In this document: in pieces, positions 2,926-52,542 of the stretch
Layout of the letters: each line of letters starts with the position of its first letter
How positions within the stretch are numbered: position 1 is the stretch's first letter
Position numbers and translations under genes: made by a program
The notes under the pieces: generated by a model
What the model was told of the DNA's origin: nothing
Databases searched by the model: none
What the model saw: the letters and a program-made list of their open reading frames with translations, nothing else
DNA from: Longimicrobiales bacterium
GTDB taxonomy: Bacteria > Gemmatimonadota > Gemmatimonadetes > Longimicrobiales > Gaopeijiaceae
Length of the DNA: 60,128 nucleotides
Assembly: GCA_032250975.1 (NCBI GenBank)
Contig: JAVVFC010000001.1
Location: 1 to 60,128, forward strand
Direction of reading: 5' to 3'

Positions 2926-4599
2926 TCAGATGCTGATGGGATCCGACGCCTTCCGACCCTGGAGGTAGAGAAGGAAGAAGGTTCGGGTCACGAAGAGAGC
3001 GGAGAAGAACGAGGCCACGATCCCGATGGAGAGGGTCACGGCGAAGCCGCGCACCGGTCCGGTTCCGAACTGGAACAGGATCAGCGCGGTGATGAGCGTG
3101 GTGATGTTGGCGTCCACGATCGCGGAGAGCGCGTGCCCGAAACCCTCGTCCACGGCGGTGCGGGTGGCCCGGCCGGCCGCCAACTCCTCGCGGATGCGTT
3201 CGAAGATCAGGACGTTGGCGTCCACCGCCATCCCGACCGAGAGGATCAGCCCCGCGATGCCCGGCAGGGTGAGGGTGGCGTTCAGAGCGGCCAGTCCGCC
3301 CATGACCAGGATCACGTAGACGAGCAGGGCCCCCAGCGCCAGGACGCCCGCCATTCGGTAATAGGCGATCATGACGACGAGCACGAGCAGGATGCCGATC
3401 AGGCCGGCGACCTCGCCCTGCGCGATGGATCCCGCCCCCAGCGACGGGCCCACGGTGCGCTCCTCCATGATGCGCAGGGGCGCCGGGAGAGCACCGGCCC
3501 TGAGCACCAGGGCGAGGTCGCTGGCCTCCTCCATGGGGGCGCCGGCCAGATCGATCTGGCCGCGCGCGCCGATGCGGTCCCGGATCACGGGCGCACTCAT
3601 GACCTCGCCGTCCAGCACGATGGCCAGATAGTCCCCGACGTGCTGACCCGTGAAGCGCGAGAACTCGCGCCCGCCGGCGCGGTTCAACTGGAACTGGACC
3701 TGGGGCGTGCTGAACTGGGCGTCCCGGGCCGCCACCGCGTCCTCCAGGCGATCCCCGGTCATGAAGGCGTCCGCCTCCAGAACGTAGAGCCGCTTGAAGG
3801 TGCGGGCGCCCCGGCCCAGGATCTCCGAACCCCAGTGCAGCTGGATGTCACGGGGGAATGCCCGGCGGACCTCCGGGAGACCGAGGAAGAGGTCGGCCTG
3901 GGGGATGTCCTCGGATGCGACGAGGTAGATGCCCTCGCCGTCGCCCACGTTCAGCAGCGAGGTGAATGGCCGAAGGTTGGGTTCACGCGGTCCGGATGCG
4001 GTGTCCGACGCCGGATCGCCCGCCCCCGCTGCGCTGTCGGCGGCGGCGGTGTCGGCGCCGCCGAACAGGAGTGCCTCCACATCGGCGCCGTCGGGTGCCT
4101 CCACGGCACGCCCGAGCGCCTCCAGGGAGTCCACGCCCAGCGCCGCGACGATGGCGCGGTCGATCCGGGGCAGGCCGGCCTCCAGCTCCGTGACCGGTCG
4201 CACCAGCTTGAACTCCAGGAAGGCGGCCTGCTGAACGATGTCCCGCGCCCGCTTCTGATCCCGGATTCCGGCCAGCTCCACGATCAGCCGCTCGGAGCCG
4301 GACTTCTGGATGAGGGGCTCCTCGACACCGAGCTCGTCGATGCGTGTGCGGATGACGCGCTCGACCCGGTCGATGGCGTCGGCCCGCGCTTCCGGTGTCA
4401 TGGTGCCGAGGGAGTCGTCAACCTCGAGCACCAGGTGCATCCCGCCCTGAAGGTCGAGGCCCAGCTTGATGGGCGACTTGACGCACTCCGAGTCGGCGTC
4501 CTCGACGCACGAGTCGTGGTAGCGATCGTAGAGCTGCCAACCGGAGATCGCGACCACCGCGAGCGTGAAGAGCAGCCGACGTCTGACGGTTTTGAACAT
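2926..4599 (-). CDS. secD: Protein translocase subunit SecD
   Basis: LGLDLQGG, GMAVDANVLIFERIREE, DANITT, GPVRGFAVTL; start taken at MFKTVRR. Confidence 0.97.
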   Translation of the reverse strand: MFKTVRRRLLFTLAVVAISGWQLYDRYHDSCVEDADSECVKSPIKLGLDLQGGMHLVLEVDDSLGTMTPEARADAIDRVERVIRTRIDELGVEEPLIQKSGSERLIVELAGIRDQKRARDIVQQAAFLEFKLVRPVTELEAGLPRIDRAIVAALGVDSLEALGRAVEAPDGADVEALLFGGADTAAADSAAGAGDPASDTASGPREPNLRPFTSLLNVGDGEGIYLVASEDIPQADLFLGLPEVRRAFPRDIQLHWGSEILGRGARTFKRLYVLEADAFMTGDRLEDAVAARDAQFSTPQVQFQLNRAGGREFSRFTGQHVGDYLAIVLDGEVMSAPVIRDRIGARGQIDLAGAPMEEASDLALVLRAGALPAPLRIMEERTVGPSLGAGSIAQGEVAGLIGILLVLVVMIAYYRMAGVLALGALLVYVILVMGGLAALNATLTLPGIAGLILSVGMAVDANVLIFERIREELAAGRATRTAVDEGFGHALSAIVDANITTLITALILFQFGTGPVRGFAVTLSIGIVASFFSALFVTRTFFLLYLQGRKASDPISI

Positions 4600-4624
4600 G
4601 GACCCGCTCGCCCTCATGAAACGG

Positions 4625-4662
4625 AAAAAAAAGCCCGGACGGCCCCGGGGGCCCGCCCGACT
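4625..4662 (-). terminator. Intrinsic terminator-like hairpin with U8 tail, just upstream of secD
   Basis: Minus strand gtcgggcgggcccccggggccgtccgggc followed by 8 T (A-run 4625-4632 on plus). Confidence 0.7.
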
Positions 4663-4678
4663 TCGGGATCAGCCTCTA

Positions 4679-4707
4679 AACCTGCTGTCGCCCCCGATAG
4701 GTGTCAA
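4679..4707 (-). promoter_or_regulatory. Putative sigma70 promoter for secDF
   Basis: TTGACA-N17-CAGGTT on the minus strand. Confidence 0.55.
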
Positions 4708-4735
4708 TTCAGGGGCGGGACGGGCGCCCCCGGTT

Positions 4736-6826
4736 TCAGACCGCGCGCCGCATGACGGCGCGCACCCGCGCGATCAGTCGGCTGGCGTCGGCGGCTTTCG
4801 TGACGAAGTCGTCCGCTCCGGCGTTCAGCAGATCCGCCTCGTCCCGGTCGGTAGCGGTTCCGGTGTGGATGACCACTGGAAGTGCGGCGGTGTCCACCGA
4901 CCCGCGAATCCGGTTCAGAACCTCCCGCCCGTTCAGGCCCGGCATCATCAGGTCCAGAATCACCAGGGAATAGGCGGGGTCCGACTTGAGGATCTCCAGC
5001 GCCAGTTCCCCGTCCGACGCCTCGTCGATCTGAAAGCCATCCGCCTGCAGGAGGGTGCGGGCCATGAGCCGGGCATCAGCGTCGTCGTCCACGATCAGGG
5101 CGCGAGGCGGTCCCTTCTCGACCTCCTCCTTCTCCTCCTCAACGACCTGGCCCAGGACCCGCTCCACTTCCACCAGGGTGGTCTTGCCGGCGCGCACATG
5201 GTCGAGCGCCACCTCCGACATCGGCCGCATGCCCCCCCGACGCGCAACCCGGGCCAGCGTCGCGTGGCCCTTCCTCTGCTCCACGGCGGCTTCGAAGCGC
5301 GGGCCGGCAACCACGACCTCGACCACGGGAATCCGGCCCCGATACCCGGTAAAGCCGCACTGCTGGCACCCGACCGCCCGCACGAGCGGCTCAACCCCGT
5401 GTACCGCAGCCAGTCGGGACTCCTCGGGAGTCAGGTTGCCGCGCACCGACTCGGCGCAGGCCGAGCAGACCCGTCTGAGGAGCCTCTGCGCGAGCGCGCC
5501 CCGGAGCGTCTGCGCGATGGTCGGGAACGGCAGGCCCATGTCTGCCAGCCGCCCGACGGCCGCCACCGCGTCGTTGGCATGGACCGTTGCCAGCACGAGG
5601 TGCCCGGTCATGGCCGCCTGAGCGGCGACCTCGGCGGTCTCCCGATCCCGGATCTCCCCCACCAGGATGACGTCCGGGTCCTGGCGCAGCATGGCCCGGA
5701 GCGCCGAGGCGAAGGTCACGCCCTGCTTCACCTCGACCTGGGTCTGGGTGATGGCCGGCAGGTCGTACTCGATGGGGTCCTCCACGGTCATGATGTTGAC
5801 CTTCCCGTCCGCCATCTCGCGCAAGGCGCCATAGAGCGTGGTCGTCTTGCCGGACCCGGTGGGACCGGTGATGACCACGATTCCGTCCCGGTGCGTAACC
5901 AGTCCCCGCAGCCGCGCCAGTTCCTCGGCGGTCAGGTCCAGATCGTCCAGTGTGAATGCGGCCGAGGAGTCGAGGATGCGGATCACGCACTTCTCGGAAC
6001 CCGCAGCGGGGAGCGTCGAGACCCGCAGGTCGTAATGCAGGTCCCCGATCCGGACCCGCGCCTTGCCGTCCTGGGGACGGAGCCGGTCGGCGATGTCCAG
6101 CCGTGAGAGGATCTTGATGCGCGAGATCACACGGTTCACGGCGGACATGGGAAGGTCCATGTGCTTGCGCAGGACACCGTCCACCCGGTAGCGCACGGTG
6201 CCGCCGCGCCGCCCCGGCTCGATATGGATGTCGCTGGCCCCCTGAGCGATGCCGTCCGAGATGATCAGGTTGGTGAGTCGCACCATGGGGGTGGCGTCCA
6301 CGTCCCCCTCGGACACCTCCTCGGGACCGGACTCCTCCACCAGGGTGAGGGCGTCGGCAGCGTCGAGTTCGGCCCCCAGGGATCCCAGGATGGCCTCCAC
6401 CTGCCGCTCGGGTGCGAAGCGCGCGTCCAGCGACGACTGGATGGCCGACGGAGAGGCGATCTGGAACTCCACGGTGCGTCCGGAACTGAACCCGACCGCG
6501 CGCTCCATCTCCACATCGGTCGGGTCGCACGTGGCGACGGTGACGCGGCGCCCGGCCTGCCGCACCGGAAAGACGTGGTGCTTGCGGGCGAGCGACTCCG
6601 GCACGACCTGGGCCGCGGAGGGGTCCGCCATGTCCAGGTCGGCGGGCTGCAGGTGGTAGTACTCCGCGACCAGGTGACAGAGCGCCTCGTCCGACAGCCC
6701 GTAGGCGCGCGTGGCGATCCCCCAGGCCTCGCGAGCCGGCAGGGCGGCGTCCAGTCCGCTGGAGGACGAGGCCGAGTGGCCCGCCCGCTCCGCGATGCGC
6801 GCAAGCCAGTGACTCGGACCCGTCAC
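4736..6826 (-). CDS. GspE/PilB-family secretion/pilus assembly ATPase with C-terminal response-regulator receiver domain
   Basis: ASDIHIEP, RYRVDG, LDIADRLRPQDG, Walker A GPTGSGKTT, TVEDPIEY, LRQDPDVILVGEIRD, His box TGHLVLATVH, Zn site CSAC..CQQC; C-terminal ALIVDDD..ILDLMMP..IHTG..DFVTK receiver. Confidence 0.92.
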   Translation of the reverse strand: MTGPSHWLARIAERAGHSASSSSGLDAALPAREAWGIATRAYGLSDEALCHLVAEYYHLQPADLDMADPSAAQVVPESLARKHHVFPVRQAGRRVTVATCDPTDVEMERAVGFSSGRTVEFQIASPSAIQSSLDARFAPERQVEAILGSLGAELDAADALTLVEESGPEEVSEGDVDATPMVRLTNLIISDGIAQGASDIHIEPGRRGGTVRYRVDGVLRKHMDLPMSAVNRVISRIKILSRLDIADRLRPQDGKARVRIGDLHYDLRVSTLPAAGSEKCVIRILDSSAAFTLDDLDLTAEELARLRGLVTHRDGIVVITGPTGSGKTTTLYGALREMADGKVNIMTVEDPIEYDLPAITQTQVEVKQGVTFASALRAMLRQDPDVILVGEIRDRETAEVAAQAAMTGHLVLATVHANDAVAAVGRLADMGLPFPTIAQTLRGALAQRLLRRVCSACAESVRGNLTPEESRLAAVHGVEPLVRAVGCQQCGFTGYRGRIPVVEVVVAGPRFEAAVEQRKGHATLARVARRGGMRPMSEVALDHVRAGKTTLVEVERVLGQVVEEEKEEVEKGPPRALIVDDDADARLMARTLLQADGFQIDEASDGELALEILKSDPAYSLVILDLMMPGLNGREVLNRIRGSVDTAALPVVIHTGTATDRDEADLLNAGADDFVTKAADASRLIARVRAVMRRAV

Positions 6827-7713
6827 GGGCGCACCATCCTTCGTCCGTGCTTCTCAATGTTCATGTCCGCACCGGCCCGGGCAACGAGGTCTCCGAGCTC
6901 CATCTCCGGAGCCCCTTCGTCCCGTACGACCCCAACGCTGACGGACAGCTGGAAGGGGTCATCGGAGTCGCGGTTGTACGCCGCCACGGCATCACGGATC
7001 CGGCGCACCAGGAATTGAGGGGGCGCTTCGGAGGTCTCCGGCGCCAGCACCGCGAACTCGTCCGGGCCCACCCGTGCGATCAGGTCGGAGTTCCGGAAGG
7101 CGTCCTCGAGCACGCGCGCCACCCGCTGAAGGGCGCGGTCCCCCATGTGATGTCCGAGGGATTGGTTGATGTTCCTGAATCGGTCCAGATCGAGATAGAT
7201 CAACGTCACGCACTTTCCGGCGCGGCGCGCGAAACGAAGGTAGCGCGCCCCCAGTTCGTTGAAGCCCCTGTGGTTGTAGAGACCGGTAAGATCATCGATC
7301 AGAGAGAGGCTCCGCAACGCGGACATGAGCCGGTGACGTTCGACCGCGTGCCGCAGGATCCGGATGAGGAGCCTGGGGGTGAGCTCCCGCTCCGGGACGA
7401 AGTCCTGGGCCCCGCCGCGCATTCCCTCCCGGGCCATGCCTTCGTCTCCAGCCTCCGTGACGACGACCACCGGCACCTCGGGTGCGAAGGCGCGCATACG
7501 CTCCAGGGCCTCCAGTCCCTCGCTGTCGGGCAGGCGCAGGTCCAGGATTACCACGTCCGTGCGTCCGCGCGCCAGGACCACGAGCGCCTCCCGCAGCTCC
7601 AGCGCCCGCTCGACCGCGAAGACGCCGGGCTCTCTATCCAGGAAACCCTGCAGGCGTCGGTAGGCGGCCTCGTCGGGCTCGACCAGGAGTACGTGGAGGG
7701 CGCGCTTGCTCAC
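6823..7713 (-). CDS. REC-GGDEF protein with degenerate active site (GPDEF)
   Basis: GTG start at 7713; VLLVEPD..ILDLRLPD receiver; DDLTGLYN, LDLDRFRNINQSLGH, RNSD-LIARV-GPDEF. Confidence 0.88.
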   Translation of the reverse strand: MSKRALHVLLVEPDEAAYRRLQGFLDREPGVFAVERALELREALVVLARGRTDVVILDLRLPDSEGLEALERMRAFAPEVPVVVVTEAGDEGMAREGMRGGAQDFVPERELTPRLLIRILRHAVERHRLMSALRSLSLIDDLTGLYNHRGFNELGARYLRFARRAGKCVTLIYLDLDRFRNINQSLGHHMGDRALQRVARVLEDAFRNSDLIARVGPDEFAVLAPETSEAPPQFLVRRIRDAVAAYNRDSDDPFQLSVSVGVVRDEGAPEMELGDLVARAGADMNIEKHGRRMVRP

Positions 7714-7862
7714 CGGTCCGGCAGGGGGCACGGGGGAGTGGGTCGGGGAGGTTGGGAAGCTACCCGGCGTGAAGACGGGCCGCCACCTCCCCCGCTCCGG
7801 CGCCCACGGCCCGGACTCCGGTTCGCTCCGAGGTCCCTCGGATGGATCCGCCAGGACAACGC

Positions 7863-8275
7863 TCAGCGCGGCAGGTTCCGGAGGATGGCATCGAGGAGGG
7901 ACTGCATCTCGAAGGGCTTGGCGATGACCTCGACCGCCCCGAGCATGTCGGCGTCCTGGAGCAGCGACGTCTTGGGGACCCGCCCGCCACCCGACATTGC
8001 GATGACCGGAATGACGTGGCCGGCCGCCTGCATCTCGAGCAGGAACTCGATGCCGTTCATCTCGGGCATGTTGAGGTCCGAGAGGACGAGGTCGGGCGCC
8101 TCGGCCTCGACCATGAGGAGGGCTTCGGCTCCGCCGTCCGCCTCCAGCGCAGCGCACCCCAGGTGGCCGAGCCAGCGCACCAGGGCGCGTCGCAGGGTCA
8201 CGTCGTCGTCCACCACCAGGATGCGCACTCCGGCCAGCGTCCGGTGCGGACCGGACGGAGTCGTGGATTCGCCCA

Positions 8276-8279
<4 letters not shown>
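7863..8279 (-). CDS. Single-domain response regulator (CheY-like)
   Basis: ILVVDDD, LSDLNMPEMNG, IAMSGG, IAKPF; ATGA overlap with the upstream gene. Confidence 0.9.
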
Positions 8280-9387
<1,108 letters not shown>

Positions 9388-9391
<4 letters not shown>

Positions 9392-10875
9392 CCGGCGTCC
9401 TCCGCGAGTGCGGTGCGGACCGCCTCCGCCAGTTCGGCGACCGCCCACGGTTTGGGCAGGAAGCGCACGTCCGGAAAATCCCCCGGGTCCCAGGGCGCCG
9501 CCGCATACCCGCTGGTGAAGACGAAGCGCGGACGGTGGTCCCAGCGGCGCACGGCGTCGTAGAGGTCCGTGCCGCTGCCATGAGGCATGATCAGGTCCGA
9601 AACCACGACATCCACCTCCGAGCGGTGATCCATCAGGGTGGTGAGCGCCTCCATGCCGTCCGAGGCGGTGAGCACGGCATAGCCCAGGTCCCGCAGCGCC
9701 CGCGCGGCGGCGCGCCGGAGCGGTTCCTCGTCCTCGGCGAGCAGGACGGTGACGTGGCGATCCCCGACGGCCGCCGCGGGATCGGCGCCTTCGGGCACCT
9801 CGGCAGGGGGCGCGACCGCCGGCAGCCGGAGCGTGAAGACGCTCCCCTGGCCGGGCTGGGAATCCACCGCCACCTCTCCACCCAGCGCGTCCACGATGCC
9901 CGACACCACCGCCAGCCCCATACCCGTCCCGTAGCCCGGGACTTTGGTCGTGAAGAAGGGGTCGAAGACGCGCAGAAGCGTATCGGCGTCCATCCCCACC
10001 CCGGTGTCGCGCACCGTGAAACGCACCTGGGGCGCGTCTCCGACCCCTGCCGACTCGCAGGCGGCGGAGATGGTCAGGGTTCCGCCCCGGGGCATGGCGT
10101 CCACGCCGTTGCGCGCCAGGTTCACCAGCGCCTGTTCGAGTGCGAGCGGGTCGGCCATCACGTGGCACCCGCCCGCCTCCATCTCGACCCGCACTGCCAC
10201 CGAAGCCGGCGCCAGCCGCCGCATGAAGCGCTCCACCTCCTGCAGCATCGCATCGACCAGGACCGGCCGGGGGCTCAGATCGCCGTCGCGGGAGAACAGA
10301 ACGAGCTTGCGCACCAGCTCCCCGCCCCGCCGGGCGGCGGCCACGATGTCCGCCACCTCGGGTTCGGGCGGGCTCCCCTCCGCCCGACTCATGTCCAGGA
10401 TCTGGGCATTGGTCAGGATGCTGGCGAGCAGGTTGTTGAAGTCGTGGGCCATTCCGGCCACCAGCTGTCCGGCGGCGCCGGCGCGATGGGCCATCAGGAG
10501 CTGCGCCTCCAACTCCTTCTCGCGGCTCACGTCCTCGCCGATACCCACGTAGTTGACCACGCGGCCGTCCACGTCGCGCACCGGAAAGATGGTGCTGCGC
10601 TGCCAGTACTCGCGCCCGTCCCGGGTCAGGTTGACGAATTCGCCCGTGAAGCTCTCCCCCGCGGACAGCCGCTTCCACATGTCCCGGTAGAACGCGGCCG
10701 ACTGCCGCTCACTTTTGAGGATCCGGGGGTTCTGGCCGACGGCTTCGGCCGACGGGTACCCGGTGATGCGCTCGAACGCGGGATTGACGTACTCGATCGT
10801 GCCGGAAGGGTCGGTCACGATCACGATGGACGCCGATTGCTCGACGGCAGCGGAGAGGAGGCGCTCCTTGCGCAT
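9388..10875 (-). CDS. Soluble PAS-HisKA-HATPase-REC hybrid sensor histidine kinase
   Basis: PAS (IEYVNPAFERITGY), H-box AHDFNNLL, N-box NLARNGVDAM, DTGVGM, FDPFFTTK, GTGMGL, C-terminal receiver (LAEDE..SDLIMP..TSGY..PKPW); no TM segment. Confidence 0.93.
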
Positions 10876-10881
10876 CCGTTG

Positions 10882-10911
10882 AATGTGCCGGACGGCGCGG
10901 GAGGACGTCAA
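10882..10911 (-). promoter_or_regulatory. Putative leaderless promoter for the signalling cluster
   Basis: TTGACG-N18-CACATT-N6-ATG(10875); the -35 overlaps the esterase stop codon. Confidence 0.45.
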
Positions 10912-11594
10912 TCCCGCCCCGAGAACTCCCGGGCGAGTCCCGCCAGCACCCACGCGTCCAGCGTGTGCCCCGACGGGTGGTTCCGCTCGTCGAGTTCGAG
11001 CCCCAGGCGGCCCGCCAGGTGGCGTTGCCGGCTCAGGATCGCGGGCGGAATGAGCGCGTCCTCCTGCCCCTGCACCGAGACGAGACGGGCGTCGCGCAGG
11101 CCCGGACCCACCGGACTGGCCTCCAGGTCCGCCGGGAGCACCTCTCCCCAGAGCACGACCCACCGGGGCCGCACACCCCCGCGCGCAACCCACCGCGCCA
11201 GGGTGTGGCAGCCCTGGCTGAACCCCAGGGTCAGTACCGGAACCGGAGCGGCGAGCCGGCCCTGGACGTGGTCGTGAAAGCGATCCAGGTAGCGCACGTA
11301 GTCGTGGATCTCGGCCTCCCGGTCCTCCCGGGTCATCCAGGTGGCGCCCACGGGGGATCCGGGTCCGTGCCGACCGGGGCCGTCCTCCAGGTAGAAGCGG
11401 CTCAGCGCCTCGGGGGCCGCCAGCAGGCGCCAGGGGCGCGCCAGACTCCGGAAGCGGCGCAGAAAGCGAGCGGCGAGCTGGCGGTACCCGTGCAGCACGA
11501 TCCAGAGTTCCCGCACCTCCGGTCCGGGTTCCCCCAGCAGCGCGTAGCGGGCCGAGCGCACCACTTCGAGATGTCCCTCGGTGAGGGCGCTCAT
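10908..11594 (-). CDS. Alpha/beta-hydrolase (phospholipase/carboxylesterase family)
   Basis: LHGY oxyanion motif, GFSQG nucleophile elbow, C-terminal D and GH. Confidence 0.85.
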   Translation of the reverse strand: MSALTEGHLEVVRSARYALLGEPGPEVRELWIVLHGYRQLAARFLRRFRSLARPWRLLAAPEALSRFYLEDGPGRHGPGSPVGATWMTREDREAEIHDYVRYLDRFHDHVQGRLAAPVPVLTLGFSQGCHTLARWVARGGVRPRWVVLWGEVLPADLEASPVGPGLRDARLVSVQGQEDALIPPAILSRQRHLAGRLGLELDERNHPSGHTLDAWVLAGLAREFSGRD

Positions 11595-11950
11595 GCCAGC
11601 AGACGCGCCACCGTGTACGCCAGCGTTCCCAGGTGCACCACCAGGAAGGCCAGGAGCAGCCGACGTGGCCACCCCGGCCCGACCAGGCGCAGGTTGCGCC
11701 AGACCAGCCAGACGGCCGGCAGGGCGAGCCACCCCAGCACGGGTATGAAGTGGTCGGCCACCGCGGGCACCGGGTCGAGGATTCTCGAGGGGCCCTCGAC
11801 CAGACCCGAGGCGCGCAGAAGCCAGCGGAGCGACCAGGGGTAGAGCGCCGAGAGCGCGGGGGCGACCAGCAGGGCGTTGACGAAGAAGAGCCCTCCGGCG
11901 CGGGTCTCGATCCAGGGGGGGGCGGCGGCGGCCGGACCGGGCACCGTCAT
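11591..11950 (-). CDS. Small hypothetical membrane protein (about 3 TM)
   Basis: Hydrophobic helices; ATGA overlaps at both ends. Confidence 0.65.
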   Translation of the reverse strand: MTVPGPAAAAPPWIETRAGGLFFVNALLVAPALSALYPWSLRWLLRASGLVEGPSRILDPVPAVADHFIPVLGWLALPAVWLVWRNLRLVGPGWPRRLLLAFLVVHLGTLAYTVARLLA

Positions 11951-12537
11951 GCCCGGTCCACCGCGGCCTGGAAGACCGCGTCCAGCCGCTCCAGCCGATG
12001 TGCCTCCTGGCGGAGTTCGAGCAGCGACTGCTGCCAGCGTCCGTCGATCTGGATGCAGGGCGCCAGTTGAAAGGAGAGGTCCCGTTCCATGTCCAGCTCC
12101 GGCAGCTCCCCGGGGGAGGGGTCCATGCCCGCAACCACGGTGTTGAAGAGATCCAGGGTGCGCCGCCGGGCGGTCTGGATGGCGCCGTTGCGCGGGGCCG
12201 CCAGGTCGCAGTAGGGGAGCACTTCGGCCTCGTAGTAGAGTTCACGCTGGTCCAGCCCCCGCACGATGCGGAAGCGGTCCCCGCCCCGCACCAGAATCAG
12301 GGAGCGGCCGTCGGGCACGGGCTGGTGCTTCTCGATGCGCGCCAGCGTGCCCACCCGACCCTCGTCCAGCAGGAAGGGCCCCTGCTCGTCCCAGTCGTGG
12401 TGCACCAACCCGAACGACTGCGACGCGTCGAGGCAATCCGCCACCATCGCCCGGTATCGTGGCTCGAAGATGTGGAGCGGCATGGGTGCTCCGGGAAAGA
12501 GCACGGCCGGCAGGGGGAAGAGCGGGATGACGTCCAT
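11947..12537 (-). CDS. Lon protease N-terminal (substrate-binding) domain protein
   Basis: IPLFPLPAVLFPGAPMPLHIFEPRYRAMV signature. Confidence 0.9.
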   Translation of the reverse strand: MDVIPLFPLPAVLFPGAPMPLHIFEPRYRAMVADCLDASQSFGLVHHDWDEQGPFLLDEGRVGTLARIEKHQPVPDGRSLILVRGGDRFRIVRGLDQRELYYEAEVLPYCDLAAPRNGAIQTARRRTLDLFNTVVAGMDPSPGELPELDMERDLSFQLAPCIQIDGRWQQSLLELRQEAHRLERLDAVFQAAVDRA

Positions 12538-12571
12538 GGGGGAGCGCCTACACCCGGGTGCCGTCCAGGTT

Positions 12572-13966
12572 CTACACCGCGGGGACGGGCAGCTCCTCGT
12601 CGCCGGTCTCGAGCCGGTCCAGCGCGCCCGCCAGCCGGATGCGGATGCGGATCACCAGCAGGACCGCGACCAGCGCCAGTCCCAGGGCCAGTCCCCACCA
12701 GAGCCCCCTTGGACCCATACCCGCCCGGAAGGAGAGAAGCGCGCCCACCGGAAGTCCGGCACCCCAGAATCCGAGGAGGTTGGTCCACATCGGCACCCGC
12801 GTGTCGCCCACCCCGCGCAACACTCCCTGCGCGACCACCTGCAGGCCGTCGAACACCTGGAAGAGCCCGGCGATGGGCAGGAGCGAGGCGGCGAGCGCCA
12901 CCACGGCCGGGTCGGACGAGTAGAGGCGTGCCAGGCCGCCCGGGACGGCAAGGAACACGGCCATGGTCACCGTCATGAATCCGGCGCCCACCAGCATGCC
13001 GCCGGCCGCCGCCCGTCGCGCCCGCTCCGGATCGCGCGCGCCCACTCCCCGCCCCACCAGTACGGTGGTGGCCTGGGAGACGCCGAGCGGAACCATGAAG
13101 GTGAGGGCGGCCAGGTTGAGTGCGATCTGGTGTCCCGCGACGGAAAGCGTCCCCAGGACACCCATGAGGACTCCGGCCATGCCGAAGGCCCCGTACTCCA
13201 GCCCCATCTGCGCCCCGATCGGCACCCCCAGTCGCATCATGCGCGCGAGCGGTGCCCAGCGCAGGGCCTGGGGACGAAGCGGCAGGAGCTGGCTGCGCAG
13301 CCGGCCCCAGGAGAGGCCCAGCAGCGCGAGCGCCATCACCCAGCGGGAGAGCGAGGACGCCCACCCCGAACCGACCGCGCCCAGGGGCGGCGCCCCCAGA
13401 TTCCCGTACACCAGCATCCAGTTGAAGAGCACGTTCGCCACGTTGGCCACGGCGATGGCGACCAGGATCGGCGTCACCTCGCCGCGGGCCTGGAGCGTCT
13501 GCCGAAGGACCACGAAGAGGTAGAAGGGGAGCACGCCGGGAATGGTGGCCAGGGCGTACCCTGCGGCGCGGGGGATGACCTCGGGCGGTTGCCGCAGCAG
13601 GTGCAGGACCGGCTCGGCCAGCAGCAGCAGCCCCGCGGCCAGCACCGTCAGACCCAGGGCGAGGATCAGGCCCCGCTGGACTCCGCGCGCCACCCCCTCC
13701 TCGTCCCCCGCGCCCACCGCCTGCGACACCACCGGGTCCAGGGAGAGGAGGAGCCCCATGCCAAAGACCGCGCATGCGAAGAAGTAGATGTTGCCGAGCG
13801 CCACCGCGGCCAGGTCGGCGGGTGAGACGTGCCCCACCATGACCGTGTCCACCACCCCCATGAGCATCATGCCCACCTGGACGGCGGCCACCGGGAGTGC
13901 CAGACGGAGCAGCTCCGCGAGTTCGCCCCTTCGGAGCAGGACTACCCCCGGCGTTCCGGGTCGCAC
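12572..13966 (-). CDS. MATE family efflux transporter (NorM-like)
   Basis: LALPV, VDTVMVGH, DPVVSQAVGA, GHQIALN, FQVFDGLQ, LRGVGDT; GTG 13966 has a GGAGG SD (alternative start 14008). Confidence 0.92.
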   Translation of the reverse strand: MRPGTPGVVLLRRGELAELLRLALPVAAVQVGMMLMGVVDTVMVGHVSPADLAAVALGNIYFFACAVFGMGLLLSLDPVVSQAVGAGDEEGVARGVQRGLILALGLTVLAAGLLLLAEPVLHLLRQPPEVIPRAAGYALATIPGVLPFYLFVVLRQTLQARGEVTPILVAIAVANVANVLFNWMLVYGNLGAPPLGAVGSGWASSLSRWVMALALLGLSWGRLRSQLLPLRPQALRWAPLARMMRLGVPIGAQMGLEYGAFGMAGVLMGVLGTLSVAGHQIALNLAALTFMVPLGVSQATTVLVGRGVGARDPERARRAAAGGMLVGAGFMTVTMAVFLAVPGGLARLYSSDPAVVALAASLLPIAGLFQVFDGLQVVAQGVLRGVGDTRVPMWTNLLGFWGAGLPVGALLSFRAGMGPRGLWWGLALGLALVAVLLVIRIRIRLAGALDRLETGDEELPVPAV

Positions 13967-19158: not shown

Positions 19159-22100
19159 CTACTCGGCCTGCAGGGCGGGCGTGCCCACCCGCCGCCGTGC
19201 GACGGCGCTCGCTGCCGGCTCGGCGCGCTCGGCGTCGGGCGCGCTGTCGGTCGCCGCAGCCGGCGCCACGAAGTACCGCGCCCAGAATCGGGCGCCGTCG
19301 TCCACCAGCGAGTACAGCACCGGGACCAGCACCAGCGTGAGGAAGGTGGCGAAGATGATCCCGGCAATGACCGCCACCGCCATCGGTCCCCACCAGGCCG
19401 CCTGCTCACCGCCCCAGAAGAGCTCGGGCTGCAGGCTCCCGTAGAACCCGAAGAAGTTGAAGTTGAGGCCGATGGCGAGCGGGACCAGGCCCAGGGCGGT
19501 GGTGGCGGCGGTGAGGACCACCGGCCGGAAGCGGGTGCGTCCCCCCTGCACGAGCGCCTCGCGCCGGTCCATGCCGTCGCGGGAGCGCAGCACGTCGATG
19601 TAGTCGATCAGAACGATAGCGTTGTTCACCACGATGCCGGCCAGCGAAATGATCCCGACGCCGGTCATGATGACGCCGAAGGGCATCCGCCAGAGCAGCA
19701 GCCCGAGCAGGACGCCGACCGTGGACATCAGGACCGAGGTGAGGATGATGACCGGCTTCACCACGGAGTTGAACTGGCTGACCAGGATGAATCCGATCAG
19801 GAGCACCGCCACCAGGAAGGCGGAGAGCAGGAAGCCCTGGGCCTCACTCTGCTCCTCCTGCTGGCCGGTATACTGGACGGTGTATCCCGGCGGCAGGTCG
19901 GCCACGAAGCCCGTCAGCGCCTCCCGGGTTTCGGCGAGGAGCGCGTTGCTGTTCACGCCGGCGGCGGCATCCGCCGAGACGGTCGCCATCCGCATCTGGT
20001 CCTTGCGCCGGATGGTGCCGTAGCCCTCCCCCACCCGCCAGGACGCCACCGAGGAGAGGGGGATCTGGGCGCCGCCCTCGGCGACCACCGTCAGGTTGGC
20101 GAGCTGGTCGAGCTCCCGCCGGTAGCGCTCCGCCAGGCGCACCACGATGTCGTACTCGTCGGTCCCGGTCCGGTACTTGGCGGCCTCGATCCCCTGGATG
20201 GCGCCCCGCACCGCCCGCCCCACGTCGGCGGTCGAGAGGTCCCAGAGCGCCGCCTTCTCGCGGTCCACCACCACCGAAAGTTCGGGGCGCGCGGCGTCCA
20301 GGTCGCTCTCCAGACCCACCATGCGGGTGAAGACCGGATGGTTCTGCAGCACCTCGATGGCGCCCTCGCTCAGCGCCTTCAGGACGGCCGGGTCCTCGCC
20401 CACGATCTCGACGTTGACGGCGGGTCCGCTCGACACGCCCTCCTGGCGCTGCTCCACCGAGATCTCGCCTCCGGCGATGTCCCGGCCGATGTTGGCCTGC
20501 ATCCAGGCCAGCGTCTCGAAGGCGTCGTGCCTGCGGTCCTGGAAGTCCACGAAGCTGATGGCGATGCGCCCCCGATCCGGTCCGGAAGGCCCCCCCTGCC
20601 CGATGGCGCCCGCGATGCCCGACGCCCCACCACTCCCCGCGGTGGCCACCCGCGACTTCCAGTCCTCCCGCCCCGGGACCCCGTCGAGCTCCGCCTCCAG
20701 GCGGCGGACGAGGGCGTCGGTGGCGTCCGCGCGGGTCCCCACCGGCGTCTCCACGTCCACGAAGACCTCCTTGGGCGGAATCGCCTCCGGAAAGAACTCG
20801 ATGCCGTGGTTGAAGCGGACGAAGAGCAGCAGGGTCACCACGAAGCTCGCGAAGGTCCCGCCCAGGATGATCAGGCGGTGGTCCAGCGCCCAGCGCAGCT
20901 GGCCCTCGTAGATCCGGACCGCTTCCGGCACCCACTCGCGCTGGAAGCGCTTTGCGAGGCCCGTGAGAAGGAAGTGGAAGAGCCCCCAGAGCAGCAGTCC
21001 GGTGGCGAGCAGAAGAAGCGCGGTCAGGGGATTGGCCTTCAGGACCAGCCCCACCGCCAGCGCACCCGCGCCGGCGAGAGTCCAGCGCGCCGCCGGGGTC
21101 AGGCCTCGGCGACGTGCCCCTTCCAGGCGCATATGGTCGGCGCAGAGGGAGGGAACGATGATCAGCGCCACGAAGAGCGACGCCGACAGGGTGACGATCA
21201 GCGTCTGGGGAAGGAAGCCCATGAACTCCCCCACCATGCCGGGCCAGAAGAGCAGAGGCGCGAATGCGGCCAGGGTAGTGAGCGTCGCAGCGATCACGGG
21301 CAGAGCCACCTCGCCCGTGGCCTTCCTGGCCGCCTGCCGTCGGTCCCACCCCTCCTCCATGTAGCGGTAGATGTTCTCCACCACCACGATGGCGTTGTCC
21401 ACGAGCATCCCCAGCGCGAGGATGAGCGAGAAGAGGACCACCATGTTCATGCTCGTGCCCAGCACGCGCAGAACGATGAAGCTCAGGAGCATGGACGTGG
21501 GGATGGAGATCCCCACGAAGAAGGAGTTGGTGAGGCCCAGGAAGAAGAGCAGGACCCCCACGATGAGGATCAGACCCGAGACGATGTTGTTCTCCAGCGA
21601 GGAGACCATCACCCGGATCTCCTCGGACTGGTCCGAGGTGACCTTCACCACCGTGGAGGGCGGAAAGAGTGGAACCGCCTCGTCCAGCACCGCCTTCACC
21701 TTGTCCGACGTCTCGATGATGTTCCGCCCGGAGCGCTTGATGATGTCCAGCGTGATGACGTCCACGCCGTCCAGGCGGGCGTAGCTCTCGCGCTCGGCGA
21801 AACCGAACTCGACGTCGGCCACGTCGCGGACGTAGACCGGACCCCCCTGCTCGGCAGTGATCACCAGGTCCCGGATCACGGCCGGGTCCCCGAACTCCCC
21901 GTCGATGCGCACCAGGTACTTGGAGCGGCCGACGTCGATGGCGCCGCCGGGCGTGTTCACGTTCTCGCGCGCCACCGCGTCCACCACATCGGCGAGCGCC
22001 AGCCCGTGGTGCTTGAGGCGCTGGAGGTCCACGTCCACTTTGACCTCCCGCTCCAACCCCCCCCGGAGGTCGACGCGCAGGATCTCGGGAATGGTCTCCA

Positions 22101-22641
22101 GCCGGTCCTGCAGGTCCTCCGCGAGCTCCTTCAGGCGCACCAGGCCATACTCCCCCGCCAGGTTCACCTGCATGATGGGAACCTCGGAGAAGTTGAACTC
22201 CGAGATCGTCGGATCCTCCGCGTCCACGGGCAGCTCCGGCCGGGCCAGATCCACCTTCTCGCGCACGCGGGCGAGGGCGTCCTCCAGGTCCACCGTGGTC
22301 TCGAACTCGGCCACGATGCTCGAGAGCCCCTCTGTGGAGGTGGAGCTGAGCTCCTTGATGTCGCCGATGGTAGAGAGTTCGTCCTCGAGCGGGCGGGTCA
22401 CCAGCGACTCCATGTCCGCGGGCGAAACCCCCGGATAGACGGTCGTCACCGCAATCATCGGAAGCTCGATCTCCGGGAACGACTCCTTGGGGGTGGTCGC
22501 GTAGGCCAGCACCCCGAGGATGGTCAGGATCAGGAGCAGCACCTTCACGCTCGTCCCGTGGTCCACCGCGAAGGAGGTGGGGCCGAATTCCTTGAAACGG
22601 TCCTGGAATCCACCCTCCCCGGGTCCGCGCCCCGACGTCAT
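19159..22641 (-). CDS. RND efflux permease (AcrB/AcrD/AcrF family)
   Basis: PKESFPEI, YPGVSP, LGMLVDNAIVVVENI, GIVVNNAIVLID, RFRPVVLT. Confidence 0.95.
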   Translation of the reverse strand: MTSGRGPGEGGFQDRFKEFGPTSFAVDHGTSVKVLLLILTILGVLAYATTPKESFPEIELPMIAVTTVYPGVSPADMESLVTRPLEDELSTIGDIKELSSTSTEGLSSIVAEFETTVDLEDALARVREKVDLARPELPVDAEDPTISEFNFSEVPIMQVNLAGEYGLVRLKELAEDLQDRLETIPEILRVDLRGGLEREVKVDVDLQRLKHHGLALADVVDAVARENVNTPGGAIDVGRSKYLVRIDGEFGDPAVIRDLVITAEQGGPVYVRDVADVEFGFAERESYARLDGVDVITLDIIKRSGRNIIETSDKVKAVLDEAVPLFPPSTVVKVTSDQSEEIRVMVSSLENNIVSGLILIVGVLLFFLGLTNSFFVGISIPTSMLLSFIVLRVLGTSMNMVVLFSLILALGMLVDNAIVVVENIYRYMEEGWDRRQAARKATGEVALPVIAATLTTLAAFAPLLFWPGMVGEFMGFLPQTLIVTLSASLFVALIIVPSLCADHMRLEGARRRGLTPAARWTLAGAGALAVGLVLKANPLTALLLLATGLLLWGLFHFLLTGLAKRFQREWVPEAVRIYEGQLRWALDHRLIILGGTFASFVVTLLLFVRFNHGIEFFPEAIPPKEVFVDVETPVGTRADATDALVRRLEAELDGVPGREDWKSRVATAGSGGASGIAGAIGQGGPSGPDRGRIAISFVDFQDRRHDAFETLAWMQANIGRDIAGGEISVEQRQEGVSSGPAVNVEIVGEDPAVLKALSEGAIEVLQNHPVFTRMVGLESDLDAARPELSVVVDREKAALWDLSTADVGRAVRGAIQGIEAAKYRTGTDEYDIVVRLAERYRRELDQLANLTVVAEGGAQIPLSSVASWRVGEGYGTIRRKDQMRMATVSADAAAGVNSNALLAETREALTGFVADLPPGYTVQYTGQQEEQSEAQGFLLSAFLVAVLLIGFILVSQFNSVVKPVIILTSVLMSTVGVLLGLLLWRMPFGVIMTGVGIISLAGIVVNNAIVLIDYIDVLRSRDGMDRREALVQGGRTRFRPVVLTAATTALGLVPLAIGLNFNFFGFYGSLQPELFWGGEQAAWWGPMAVAVIAGIIFATFLTLVLVPVLYSLVDDGARFWARYFVAPAAATDSAPDAERAEPAASAVARRRVGTPALQAE

Positions 22642-23723
22642 GAGCCCTCCACCACCCGCACCCGGTCCCCGTCCGCCACGCTCTTCTGGCCCACCACCAC
22701 CAGGCGCTCGCCGGCCTCCAGCCCGGCGGTGACCACCACCCGGTTTCCGCGCGACGAGCCCAGCTCCACGCGGCGGCGGCGAGCGAACGTCTGCTCGCCC
22801 TCCCCCTCCACCACGAACACCACGTAACCGTCGTCCAGGCGGACCAGTGCGTCCTGGGGCACGGCCAGCGCGCCCTCCACTGCACTCCGCTCCAGGGTGA
22901 CGTTGGCCACCATCTCCGGCTTGATCCGGAGCTGCGGATTGGGCAACCGGAATTCGACCGGGAAGGTCCGGTTGCGCGGATCCACCGCCGAGCCCACGAA
23001 GTCCACGGTCGCCAGACCACCCGCCTCGGGCAGGACGTCGAAGGTCACGTCGGCGGCGGTCCCCGGGCGCACGTCGGGCGCGTAGCGCTCAGGCACCCCG
23101 GCGCGGATCTTGACCGGGTCCGCGTCCACCACCCGGAATACGGGCGTGCCGGCCGCCACCAGGCTCCCGACCTCCACCATGCGGTCCTCCAGCACGCCGG
23201 CGAAGGGGGCACGGATGACGGTGCGGGCCAGGCGCTCCTCCAGGCCGCGGAGCGTGGCCGCCGACTGCTCGGCGGCGAAGCGCGCCTCCAGATAGGCCAG
23301 TTCCGAACCCACGCGGTCCTCCTCCCACAGGCGTCGCCGGCGCGTCCAGGTCTCCTCGGCCAGTTGCGCGGCCGCGCGCGCCTGGTCCACCTGGGCCCGC
23401 AGCACCCGGTCGTCGATACGCAGCACCGCGTCTCCCGTGCGCACGCGCTCCCCCTTGTCCCGCACGATCTCCAACACCGCGCCGCTCTCCTCGGCCGCCA
23501 CCGTGACATCCTGCTCGGCGGCTACCGTGCCGGTCAGCAGGATCTCCTCGATAAAGCGCTCGGGCGCGACCGTCTGGACCTCGACGTTGATGACGCGGAC
23601 GAACCCGGTCCCCGCACCGCCCTCGGCGGCACCGGGATCCCCCGCCGAGGCGTCGCCGCACGCGGCCGCGACGACCGCACCCAGAAGAAACGCCCGGCGC
23701 ACCGTTTCACCCCGCTGCCTCAT
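22638..23723 (-). CDS. RND periplasmic adaptor (membrane fusion protein)
   Basis: AAAC lipobox, IRAPFAG, VDPRNRTF, GLEAGERLVVVG. Confidence 0.93.
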   Translation of the reverse strand: MRQRGETVRRAFLLGAVVAAACGDASAGDPGAAEGGAGTGFVRVINVEVQTVAPERFIEEILLTGTVAAEQDVTVAAEESGAVLEIVRDKGERVRTGDAVLRIDDRVLRAQVDQARAAAQLAEETWTRRRRLWEEDRVGSELAYLEARFAAEQSAATLRGLEERLARTVIRAPFAGVLEDRMVEVGSLVAAGTPVFRVVDADPVKIRAGVPERYAPDVRPGTAADVTFDVLPEAGGLATVDFVGSAVDPRNRTFPVEFRLPNPQLRIKPEMVANVTLERSAVEGALAVPQDALVRLDDGYVVFVVEGEGEQTFARRRRVELGSSRGNRVVVTAGLEAGERLVVVGQKSVADGDRVRVVEGS

Positions 23724-25213
23724 GCTCCCTCCCCAACGGCGGGAACGCGCCCCACCGCCTCGTCGAGCCGCGCCCGGGCGACCAGGTAGTCGAAGACCGC
23801 CTGCGCGTAGTTGAATTCACTCTCCCGAAGCGCCACCTCGGCGTCGGTCAGCTCCAGCTGGCTGCCCAGCCCCTCGCGGTACTGCGCGCGGGCGATCTCG
23901 AATCCACGCTCCGCCTGCGAAACGGCCAATCGCTGGCCGTCGGCCCGCAGCCGGGCCTCCTCCACCTGCTCGGCCAGCGTGCGCACCTCGCTGGCGGCCT
24001 GGCTCTGCGCCAGCTCGGTCTGCACGCGGGCCTGGCGGAGCGCCGCCCGCTTCTGGTCGATGCGCGCGTCGCGGCGGAAGCCCTGGAACACCGGAAGCGT
24101 GAGGCGGACGCCCGCCAGCCGCGTGTAGGTCCGGGGGGCGCCGAAGAACTCGGGGCCGCCGTTCTGCTGGGAGTTGATGATGTAGCTTCCGAACAGGGAT
24201 AGGCTCGGCAGATACTCCACCTGCTCCAGGCGAAGCTCCGTCTGCCGCAGGCTCTCGGTGGCCAGCAGTTGGCGCACGTCGGAGCGGCCCACCCGGGCCA
24301 GCGCAACCAGCGTGTCCGGGGGTAGATCCTCCGCCACACCGGCCATGGCCAGGATGGCCCGGTTCTCGGGCGTGTTCGCCTCCGGCCGCTCCAGATCCAT
24401 GTCGGCGAGTGATCCGGCGAGCTCCATGCGCTCGGCCTCCCCGTCCGGCAGCCCGAGTTCCACCCCCAGGGCGCGCTTTCCCTGGGTCACCGCGTTCTCG
24501 GCCCGCCGCACGTTGGGCTCCAGATTTGCCCGCTCCACGTCCAGCCGCAGCACGTCGTAGTCGGCCGCCAGTCCCGCGGCGTTGAGGGCGCGCGTCTCCG
24601 CCAGGCTCTCCTCCACGCGCCGCAGCGAATTGGTCAGCAGGCGAAGCTGCTCCTGGGCCAGCAGCAGTTCGTAGAAGCCGGTTCGCACCCGCGTCACCAC
24701 CGCCTGCACCTCGCCCCGCACCGACTCCTCCTGGAGCGCCCGGAAGCGGCCCGCCGCCCCCACGCCGATGAAGGCCCGGGCATCGAGCAGAGGCTGTTCG
24801 GCGTCGAGCGACAGATTCCAGATGTTGTCGGCTCCGAAGCGGATGGCGATCAGATCGTCCGGACCCGCCTCCGGGTCGAAGATGATGGCGGGCAGGAAGT
24901 TCACCGCCGGAGACAGGTTGCGGGTGTAGGTGGTGTTCAGGTCCAGCGTGGGAAAGACGTTGCTCCACGCCTCGCTCACCTGTTCCCCGGACTCCTCGAG
25001 TGCGAAGCGCGCCGCCCGCAGCTGCGGGTTGCGCGTCACCGCCACCCGCACCGCCTCGTCCAGCGCGAGCACACGCGTCCGTGTCGAATCCGGACGCCAC
25101 TGGCCGGCCGCCCCGGCAGGCCCCCCCAGGGCCATGGACAGGGCCAGGGCGAGCGGCATCGCCATCCCCATCCGCACCCCTGCCCGTACCCGGGCCTTCG
25201 TTCCCGACCTCAT
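23720..25213 (-). CDS. TolC-family outer-membrane efflux protein
   Basis: Signal peptide; LALDEAVRVAVTRNP, LTLPVFQG, YREGLGSQLELTDAE. Confidence 0.92.
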   Translation of the reverse strand: MRSGTKARVRAGVRMGMAMPLALALSMALGGPAGAAGQWRPDSTRTRVLALDEAVRVAVTRNPQLRAARFALEESGEQVSEAWSNVFPTLDLNTTYTRNLSPAVNFLPAIIFDPEAGPDDLIAIRFGADNIWNLSLDAEQPLLDARAFIGVGAAGRFRALQEESVRGEVQAVVTRVRTGFYELLLAQEQLRLLTNSLRRVEESLAETRALNAAGLAADYDVLRLDVERANLEPNVRRAENAVTQGKRALGVELGLPDGEAERMELAGSLADMDLERPEANTPENRAILAMAGVAEDLPPDTLVALARVGRSDVRQLLATESLRQTELRLEQVEYLPSLSLFGSYIINSQQNGGPEFFGAPRTYTRLAGVRLTLPVFQGFRRDARIDQKRAALRQARVQTELAQSQAASEVRTLAEQVEEARLRADGQRLAVSQAERGFEIARAQYREGLGSQLELTDAEVALRESEFNYAQAVFDYLVARARLDEAVGRVPAVGEGA

Positions 25214-25863
25214 CGCTCCACCCCTCCCATGGCCGCTTCGGGGCGGCCGTCCAGGATTTCCAGCAGTGCCGGCGTACCGACGCCCTCCAGCATTCGCCTC
25301 CCGGAAGCCTCGAAGAAGCGGCGGAAGCCGTCCCGGTCGAGGGGCGCGCCCTCCCGCAGCAGGCGACCGCGCAGGAAGAGGATGAGGAGGCCGTGCGCGT
25401 GGCCCCAGAGCGTCACCGACACGTCCTCGGGGTCCCCCGGGCGCAGCAGGCCCTCGTCCATGCACTCCCGGACCCGGTCGTGCCAGAACTGCCCGATGGC
25501 GCAGCCGAGCGCCTCCACCTCCGGCGCCTGGCGGGCCATGCCCAGCGTGTCGGGATCGGCGAACATGAAACCGTAGAGCCGTGGATTCTCCAGGGCGAAG
25601 TCCAGATAGCCCTCCGAGGCGAGCGAAAGACGCTCCAGCGGCGTGCCTCCGGCCAGGCCCCGGTACAGGTACTGGGCGAAGCGCTGGTACGCCTGGACGA
25701 GAACGTCCTGGAGCAGCTGCTCACGGCTCTCGTAGTGCTTGTAGAGCGCCGGAGCGGTCACCCCTAAAGAACGGGCGAGCCGGCGCATGCTGAAGCCGTC
25801 CGCCCCCTGTGCGAGGAAGAGTTCGCAGGCGTGTTCGAGGATGCGATCGCGTTGCTCAGACAT
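25210..25863 (-). CDS. TetR/AcrR-family regulator (WHG-like C-terminus)
   Basis: FSMRRLARSLGVTAPALYKHY helix-turn-helix; LWGHAHG. Confidence 0.93.
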   Translation of the reverse strand: MSEQRDRILEHACELFLAQGADGFSMRRLARSLGVTAPALYKHYESREQLLQDVLVQAYQRFAQYLYRGLAGGTPLERLSLASEGYLDFALENPRLYGFMFADPDTLGMARQAPEVEALGCAIGQFWHDRVRECMDEGLLRPGDPEDVSVTLWGHAHGLLILFLRGRLLREGAPLDRDGFRRFFEASGRRMLEGVGTPALLEILDGRPEAAMGGVER

Positions 25864-52474: not shown

Positions 52475-52542
52475 GGAGGGGGAAAGCTATTCGCGCAGGG
52501 AGTGGGCGACCAGACCCGTCCCGGGCGGGGGCGGTCGGGGCG

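Follow-up and report, generated by a model that had tools for sequence, protein, structure and literature searches.

Do the five co-oriented genes between positions 4736 and 10911 of contig JAVVFC010000001.1 from a Longimicrobiales bacterium form one signalling cassette, and what is the role of the pilus-type ATPase encoded by the last of them? These genes, carried by a stretch of 60,128 nucleotides (nt) referred to below as the window, encode in order of transcription a PAS hybrid kinase, a REC-HD-GYP phosphodiesterase of cyclic di-GMP (c-di-GMP), a stand-alone receiver (REC), a REC-GGDEF-domain protein with a GPDEF site, and a PilB/GspE-type ATPase ending in a receiver, hereafter PilB-REC. 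A preliminary description had read them as a self-contained plug-in cassette, in which the kinase sets the local c-di-GMP level and gates an alternative motor docking on a machine encoded elsewhere. The comparisons reported here point instead to two units, an old REC-GGDEF/PilB-REC pair and a local trio made of the three other genes; this division, taken jointly with the reading of PilB-REC as an alternative pilus motor, is proposed with moderate confidence.

Gene order and the limits of the cluster

Gene order was compared in the best 80 of 111 Longimicrobiales-type loci from the genome collection, and in a second, overlapping set of 21 orthologous loci from 60 relatives. A REC-GGDEF gene lies at most 400 nt upstream of the ATPase gene in 78 of the 80 loci according to tblastn, or in 79 when the gene call in L212 is counted, the remaining locus (L187) being without upstream DNA, and secD lies downstream of the ATPase gene in all 58 loci whose downstream sequence extends 5.5 kb or more. 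As for the trio, none of the 80 loci, of which 60 reach 4.5 kb or more upstream, gave an HD-GYP gene. They likewise gave no kinase orthologue, the best match (75 bits) being the NtrB-type kinase of an NtrB/NtrC pair, and the best match to the stand-alone receiver outside fused receivers reached 36 bits. The kinase frequently seen upstream in relatives was rejected as an orthologue: it is of NtrB type and pairs with a sigma-54 regulator. Across loci, the slot before REC-GGDEF varies and holds an extracytoplasmic function (ECF) sigma cluster, SCO, murB or ABC genes, and orthologues of the hydrolase-like gene that borders it in the window are found further upstream of REC-GGDEF in L033, L085, L089 and L184. 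The nearest kinase/HD-GYP pairs in relatives (40-49% identity) are on other contigs than PilB-REC; the best relatives of the HD-GYP protein (46-49%) are unlinked to the ATPase, and the best relative of the kinase is 49% identical. A metagenome scan returned a single locus, L101, which has the pair as in the other loci and no trio in its 2.7 kb of upstream sequence. A conserved or mobile five-gene cassette was thus rejected, as the trio is in none of the 80 loci and bears no mobility marks: its guanine-plus-cytosine (GC) content, about 0.70, is that of its flanks, and no integrase or transposase is among the Pfam matches of the window, flanking repeats not having been searched for. Of note, one orthologue of the ATPase gene, in genome G022 (L049:5995-8126), is split into three open reading frames by frameshifts or assembly errors.

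Transcription signals also bear on the limits of the cluster. The dedicated promoter suggested previously was not recovered, as a sigma-70 consensus scan of 4500-12600 gave no site and the kinase ATG lies 32 nt after the stop codon of the hydrolase-like gene, a stop that the alternative TTG start at 10911 overlaps. In 15 of 67 loci, REC-GGDEF has an upstream neighbour in divergent orientation, so that the pair needs a promoter of its own. The pattern T(G/C)G(C/T)(G/C)-N16-20-TAxxTT is present in the 200 nt upstream of REC-GGDEF in 36 of 70 loci, versus 0.44 in Markov-shuffled copies and none in coding controls, a count that is optimistic because the pattern was derived from these same loci. 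The window lies outside the 70 derivation loci and matches the pattern at 7785-7757, one of only two matches in the 60 kb; this conserved motif splits the cluster in two and leaves its description as self-contained unsupported. The second match (52484-52512, minus strand) is just upstream of an M50 peptidase-scpA-scpB run. The pattern may be a housekeeping promoter form of this group.

These data also bear on another account, according to which the five genes would be a young functional unit confined to this lineage, with the inserted PAS kinase as donor for all downstream receivers, including that of the motor. Gene calls and Pfam matches do bear out the five co-oriented, receiver-bearing genes described earlier, with ATGA/GTGA overlaps of 4 bp at three of the four junctions, two of them within the trio; the fourth junction, a 149-nt gap between REC and REC-GPDEF, is without terminator-like site, and the trio matches its flanks in GC content. 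Moreover, one relative (L114) has a similar set around PilB-REC, namely GGDEF-REC, REC-HD-GYP (49% identity), two RECs and an Hpt-hybrid kinase. This set was built independently of the window cluster, so that the window is not alone in having recruited such genes, and cross-feeding between them and the motor is conceivable. A single five-gene unit is nonetheless unlikely in view of the absence of the trio from all 80 loci, the survival of the ancestral promoter-like motif within the cluster, the location of the nearest kinase/HD-GYP pairs away from PilB-REC and the lineage-dependent content of the slot, as well as the nature of the kinase, which has no Hpt domain and differs in type from those that neighbour PilB-REC in other loci.

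Table 1. Coordinates of the five genes and of neighbouring features in the window
Feature	Position	Strand	Basis or remark
PilB-REC ATPase, MshEN-T2SSE-REC, 696 residues	4736..6826	-	Pfam
REC-GGDEF-domain protein with GPDEF site, 296 residues	6823..7713	-	Pfam; start at 7713 agrees with orthologue starts in L143 and L147
Promoter-like motif TGGCG-N18-TAGCTT	7757..7785	-	Kept upstream of REC-GGDEF in relatives
Stand-alone receiver (REC), 138 residues, in local insertion	7863..8279	-	Pfam
REC-HD-GYP, c-di-GMP phosphodiesterase, 371 residues, in local insertion	8276..9391	-	Pfam and motifs
PAS-HisKA-HATPase-REC, cytoplasmic CckA-type hybrid kinase, 495 residues	9388..10875	-	Pfam; alternative TTG start at 10911
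Terminator-like hairpin and T run, 3' of the ATPase gene	4634..4649	-	Sequence scan
secD, downstream neighbour (secD-secF-tatD-mutL)	2926..4599	-	Pfam and synteny
Hydrolase-like gene, upstream edge of the variable slot	10908..11594	-	Label by sequence reading; without Pfam match

Outside the cluster, a TTGACA box is found about 100 nt from the start of secD (4600-4710, minus strand), on the upstream side of the terminator-like hairpin, which could therefore also be a secDF attenuator. At 19162-25863, a TetR-TolC-HlyD-AcrB RND efflux cluster precedes an unannotated gene of 449 codons.

The PilB-REC ATPase and the pilus machinery

PilB-REC shares with PilB (Geobacter 5TSH/5ZFR, Thermus PilF 5OIU) and GspE (4PHT) the N1-N2-CTD layout, the Walker, Asp and His boxes and the zinc tetracysteine, but differs from them by its C-terminal canonical receiver, its location outside pil/gsp operons and scores below both curated family cut-offs. 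Residues K327, T328, E349, E391, H409, H416 and C454/457/487/490, which make up the Walker A/B motifs, the Asp/His boxes and the tetracysteine, are found in all 120 homologues, and the receiver has the residues of a canonical response regulator, with D580, D581, D625, T655 and K677 present in 119-120 of the 120. The window copy deviates at 12 of 356 conserved sites (mean 7.6, standard deviation 6.0), which is in the normal range, and its predicted model, with a predicted local distance difference test (pLDDT) value of 82.6, gives GspE and PilB as top Foldseek matches (E about 1e-41, 35-44% identity). In a tree of 184 ATPase domains rooted on three PilT sequences, whose deep nodes are weak, PilB-REC forms a clade (support 1.0) separate from the family's PilB, from a second orphan ATPase (see below) and from GspE; its HW group, to which the window copy belongs by motif, has a support of 0.98.

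The preliminary description had cited as known that c-di-GMP controls PilB/MshE motors through MshEN domains or FimX/PilZ adaptors. The c-di-GMP motif of MshEN, given in the available text of PMC5013675 as a tandem RLGxx(L/V/I)2xxG(L/V/I)2xxxxLxxxLxxQ, is in none of the 120 homologues, even with the relaxed pattern from the same source, and is replaced by an HW motif (HW-L-x-x-I-x-x-RAG) in 113 of them, as it is in the window copy. As a positive control, the genome's canonical PilB keeps one strict MshEN motif. Loss of the c-di-GMP motif makes MshE-style gating of PilB-REC unlikely. The MshEN fold region (PF05157) is shared with Vibrio cholerae MshE and Myxococcus xanthus PilB, but their RLGxx..Q motifs are absent from PilB-REC. 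Another fusion, Gmet_3473 of Geobacter metallireducens (REC-MshEN-T2SSE), has its receiver at the N-terminus and not at the C-terminus; the N-terminal arrangement is entered without functional reference in Supplementary Table 4 of PMC5013675, a table in which the C-terminal form does not appear.

The fusion itself is widespread. An N-terminal profile, used to search the phylum genomes, with the architecture checked in 40 loci, matches 247 of 401 genomes; one family accounts for 165 of these (out of 166 genomes), and the family studied here for 20 (out of 70). Among the best 150 clusters at 50% identity, 108 have the fusion, although the profile favours fusions; Atlas clusters with it come from Gemmatimonadota, Thermodesulfobacteriota and Elusimicrobiota, and automatic JGI names already flag the motor-receiver fusion. 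Two PilB-REC subgroups adjoin a small unknown gene and a pilin-like gene (L050, L054, L056, L058, L060-L062 and L065; L127-L133 and L138), and L062 is beside a pilC/pseudopilin cluster on the opposite strand. Other observations concern the diversity of the family: near-core PilB-REC genes of other Gemmatimonadota families (L122, L125, L126, L134-L137, L139) come after a gene weakly similar to window 30563-32887 and are often followed 3' by a small gene labelled NUDIX-like by sequence reading, while 14 of the 150 representatives (P0141, P0146 and 12 more) are proteins of about 1000 residues with two tandem T2SSE domains.

On which machine could such a motor act? Genome-wide family searches gave no T2SSF, secretin, Hpt, pilin N-methylation or PilM match on the window's contig, which upholds the earlier statement that the 60 kb hold no pilin, PilC/GspF, secretin or Hpt gene. 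Counting PilB paralogues and locating pilC, as that description had advised, showed several PilB-type ATPases in a genome (88% complete, 398 contigs) that has pilB-pilT-pilC on contig C357, pilMNOPQ on C30, major and minor pilins, and a Tad system. No secretin of a type II secretion system (T2SS) was found in this genome, both of its secretins being within the pilMNOPQ and Tad clusters, and a candidate second PilC on C279 was rejected as TadB-like. In addition to PilB-REC, there is a second orphan PilB-type ATPase without receiver and with a partial MshEN motif (C247:112-1920, L225), together with a PilB fragment of 584 nt on C300. This second orphan is conserved across the order, also away from pil genes (L262, L264, L266, L268, L280). 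Three near-complete relatives (G015, G333, G028) have one PilC and one secretin each, and two of them, G015 and G333, have 3-4 PilB-type ATPases; the extra T2SSF pairs and secretins of G008 and G012, which cluster together, are read as Tad.

A complex predicted between PilM and residues 1-150 of the ATPase scored 0.50, versus 0.01 for the best control, and is rated weak, with contacts agreeing at 82% at least between runs and a partner pLDDT of at least 82. Of 157 solved pairs, 116 attained the pass mark for such scores, as did 2 of 215 mismatched ones, and the band up to 0.60 holds 18 solved pairs and both mismatches. The presence of several PilB-type ATPases alongside a single PilC and a single PilQ, the lack of a T2SS secretin and this weak predicted PilM binding lend indirect support to the earlier proposal of an alternative motor acting on a machine encoded elsewhere.

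The REC-GGDEF partner, the trio and candidate phosphate donors

Among 75 orthologues of the REC-GGDEF protein, the active-site motif is GGDEF in 63 and varies in 12, with the second glycine kept in 74; none has GPDEF, which is found only in this genome's copy. Of 107 conserved sites, 15 are altered in the window copy (mean 2.7, standard deviation 3.1), the second highest value of 76, with K180R and D184Q among the changes; this copy lacks the combination expected of an active cyclase, i.e., a (G/S/A)G(D/E)EF site with the substrate-binding residues. According to the available text of PMC3974145, active cyclases tolerate change at the first motif position only. From its sequence, the GPDEF protein is likely inactive as a cyclase. 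It may still bind c-di-GMP at its I-site, an RxxD motif (R207/D210) located five residues before the active-site motif, present in the window copy and invariant in the 75 orthologues. Its receiver lacks the conserved Lys and is thus receiver-like, a wording that the preliminary description had already chosen. As no more than 42 of 75 orthologues retain the phospho-Asp, phospho-control of the REC-GGDEF protein is no family constant. A link between degenerate GGDEF and retention of the ATPase (7/20 vs 0/9) was considered and set aside, given the small numbers, the relatedness of the genomes and the presence of GGDEF in 63 of 75 ATPase-linked orthologues. The same REC-GGDEF layout and RxxD I-site are found in Leptospira DgcR (6ZXB/6ZXM), but the window copy has GPDEF where the family has mostly GGDEF. 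Bdellovibrio CdgA (GVNEF), presented in the available part of PMC3983030 as a degenerate c-di-GMP binder at the pilus-bearing pole, is a further comparable protein, the window copy being likewise degenerate with an I-site.

Concerning the trio, the highest 19-residue hydropathy of the five proteins is 1.14-1.63, so that none has a clear transmembrane (TM) helix, in line with what had been stated before. HD-GYP domains are recognized by an HD dyad, an HHExxDGxGYP motif and a C-terminal RxY, and these are intact in the window protein (HDIGK, HHEQWDGSGYPDG and TRVYR; Pfam HD_5, 118 bits). With this phosphodiesterase intact and the local cyclase probably inactive, the cluster could lower c-di-GMP but probably not make it. 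The kinase has CckA as its best NCBIfam match (276 bits, cut-off 1000) and shares the PAS-HisKA-HATPase-REC architecture of CckA-type kinases, but is without TM segment and without ChpT/CtrA context. Its single PAS domain is closest to PDB 3ewk (E 1.5e-35), which we take to be the FAD redox sensor of MmoS; when longer relatives were sought, in case the kinase is truncated at its N-terminus, nothing but generic multi-PAS kinases (30-52%) came up. Most plausibly, this kinase serves the neighbouring HD-GYP protein and REC.

Another source of phosphate is suggested by the surroundings of PilB-REC elsewhere. In 28 HW-type loci outside this clade, an Hpt-containing hybrid kinase is encoded directly 5' of the ATPase in 5, and a stand-alone Hpt directly 3' in 6. 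The only Hpt of the genome is on contig C4 (C4:639-4773, L223), coupled to a REC and then to a MASE3-PAS hybrid kinase, and this Hpt and REC match the pair found 3' of PilB-REC in L067, L117, L118 and L141 (38-47% and 63-67%, respectively). This match makes the C4 relay the first candidate donor; by sequence comparison, its Hpt locus would be a better-conserved donor candidate than the local PAS kinase.

A proposed phosphorylation-gated alternative motor and rival accounts

In the model that we propose, and which we regard as about as credible as not, PilB-REC would serve the cell's only type IVa pilus machine as an alternative extension motor gated by phosphorylation, the trio being separate. 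Phosphate from a hybrid kinase would reach Asp625, most likely via the stand-alone Hpt encoded on C4, and the phosphorylated receiver would alter the activity or the docking of the hexamer. The ATPase's N-terminal domain would dock on PilM, and the ring, substituting for canonical PilB, would drive PilC. In relatives, c-di-GMP would rise through the co-transcribed cyclase and be read by canonical PilB with its one strict MshEN motif, allowing the pair to coordinate both motors. In this genome, the cyclase would have drifted to GPDEF, at most binding c-di-GMP at its I-site, and the inserted trio would comprise a probably redox-sensing kinase that controls a phosphodiesterase and may cross-feed the motor.

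Several points weigh against this model. The PilB-REC scores are below the cut-offs for both PilB (TIGR02538, 454 vs 675.65) and GspE (TIGR02533, 472 vs 630.25), and the predicted PilM contact might come from resemblance to GspE-GspL, a solved complex (4PHT). With the genome 88% complete, the count may have missed a further platform, and the promoter-like pattern was counted in the loci that yielded it. The two genes can also occur apart: L048 carries the ATPase but lacks REC-GGDEF, and in 8 loci REC-GGDEF precedes secD without the ATPase, two of these having a lone REC with 41-47% identity to the fused receiver. Some relatives of this ATPase are fused to PAS-GGDEF, PAS-GGDEF-EAL or TPR repeats (P0128, P0166, P0212, P0139, P0191, P0225), which in the first four, from the HW group, take the place of the C-terminal REC. 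In L066:5974-8073 and L067:5992-8043, the Walker, Asp and His motifs are decayed while the receiver is intact, which fits a signalling role, and genome G030, which carries a motif-decayed PilB-REC member, gave no PilM match. Another PilB-REC paralogue is found elsewhere in 7 of the 8 genomes with ATPase-less loci. The two lone receivers (L081:8173-8574 and L083:7552-7971) occupy the PilB-REC slot, the ATPase part being gone.

Part of this evidence, i.e., the replaced C-termini (P0128, P0166, P0212, P0139), the decayed motifs of some members and the lone RECs, is what would be expected if PilB-REC were a signalling ATPase, a scaffold or a dominant-negative regulator that reads or blocks the pilus machine and localizes a diguanylate cyclase. 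M. xanthus PilB reportedly signals to exopolysaccharide synthesis (PMC5544727), which would fit such a function. This account is nevertheless improbable for the window protein, since none of 120 close homologues departs at the tested catalytic positions or in the zinc motif, its conservation is normal and pilin genes adjoin other subgroups. Lastly, neutral gene traffic, with the trio caught in a variable slot, the cyclase decaying and the pair an old operon without functional link, would account for the deviations of REC-GGDEF, the loss of the ATPase in 8 loci and a gene order that the position before secDF may keep passively, but is very unlikely given the adjacency in 79 of 80 loci, the RxxD conserved in all orthologues and in the window, and the fusion of ATPases of this group to GGDEF elsewhere.

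Our literature search found no study of a C-terminal PilB-receiver fusion, which response-regulator census reviews may nevertheless list, and the available text of a 2024 review on PilB control (PMC11656802) does not mention a fused receiver. Known receiver proteins act on PilB in trans, as described in the available texts on Xanthomonas (PMC13507683) and Synechocystis (10.1101/2021.06.11.447907). DrdR of X. campestris, the PATAN regulators of Synechocystis and FimX thus share with PilB-REC a two-component or c-di-GMP input on the motor, but they are separate proteins whereas the receiver is covalently attached here; unlike FimX systems, moreover, the window cluster has no PilZ or FimX-like EAL partner. 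The presence of several PilB homologues in one bacterium is known from Geobacter (PMC8557921, in the part available). This locus adds a cyclase-motor pair that is conserved and has a promoter-like motif of its own, a cyclase that has degenerated in this genome, and the count of a single platform.

While the five-gene arrangement is local, the PilB-receiver architecture is common. More broadly, and only tentatively, Gemmatimonadota might swap the c-di-GMP-read PilB for a phospho-receiver paralogue that is the output of a His-Asp-His-Asp relay, with the Longimicrobiales cyclase coupling the two motors; in the genome studied here, the cyclase would have become a pure c-di-GMP-binding adaptor and a redox kinase/phosphodiesterase trio would have been recruited. 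How two-component signals act on the pilus extension motor is a standing question, also for Pseudomonas, in which contact between PilG/PilH and PilB is not reported in the available text of PMC11656802, and a natural PilB-receiver fusion makes this question testable in one purified protein.

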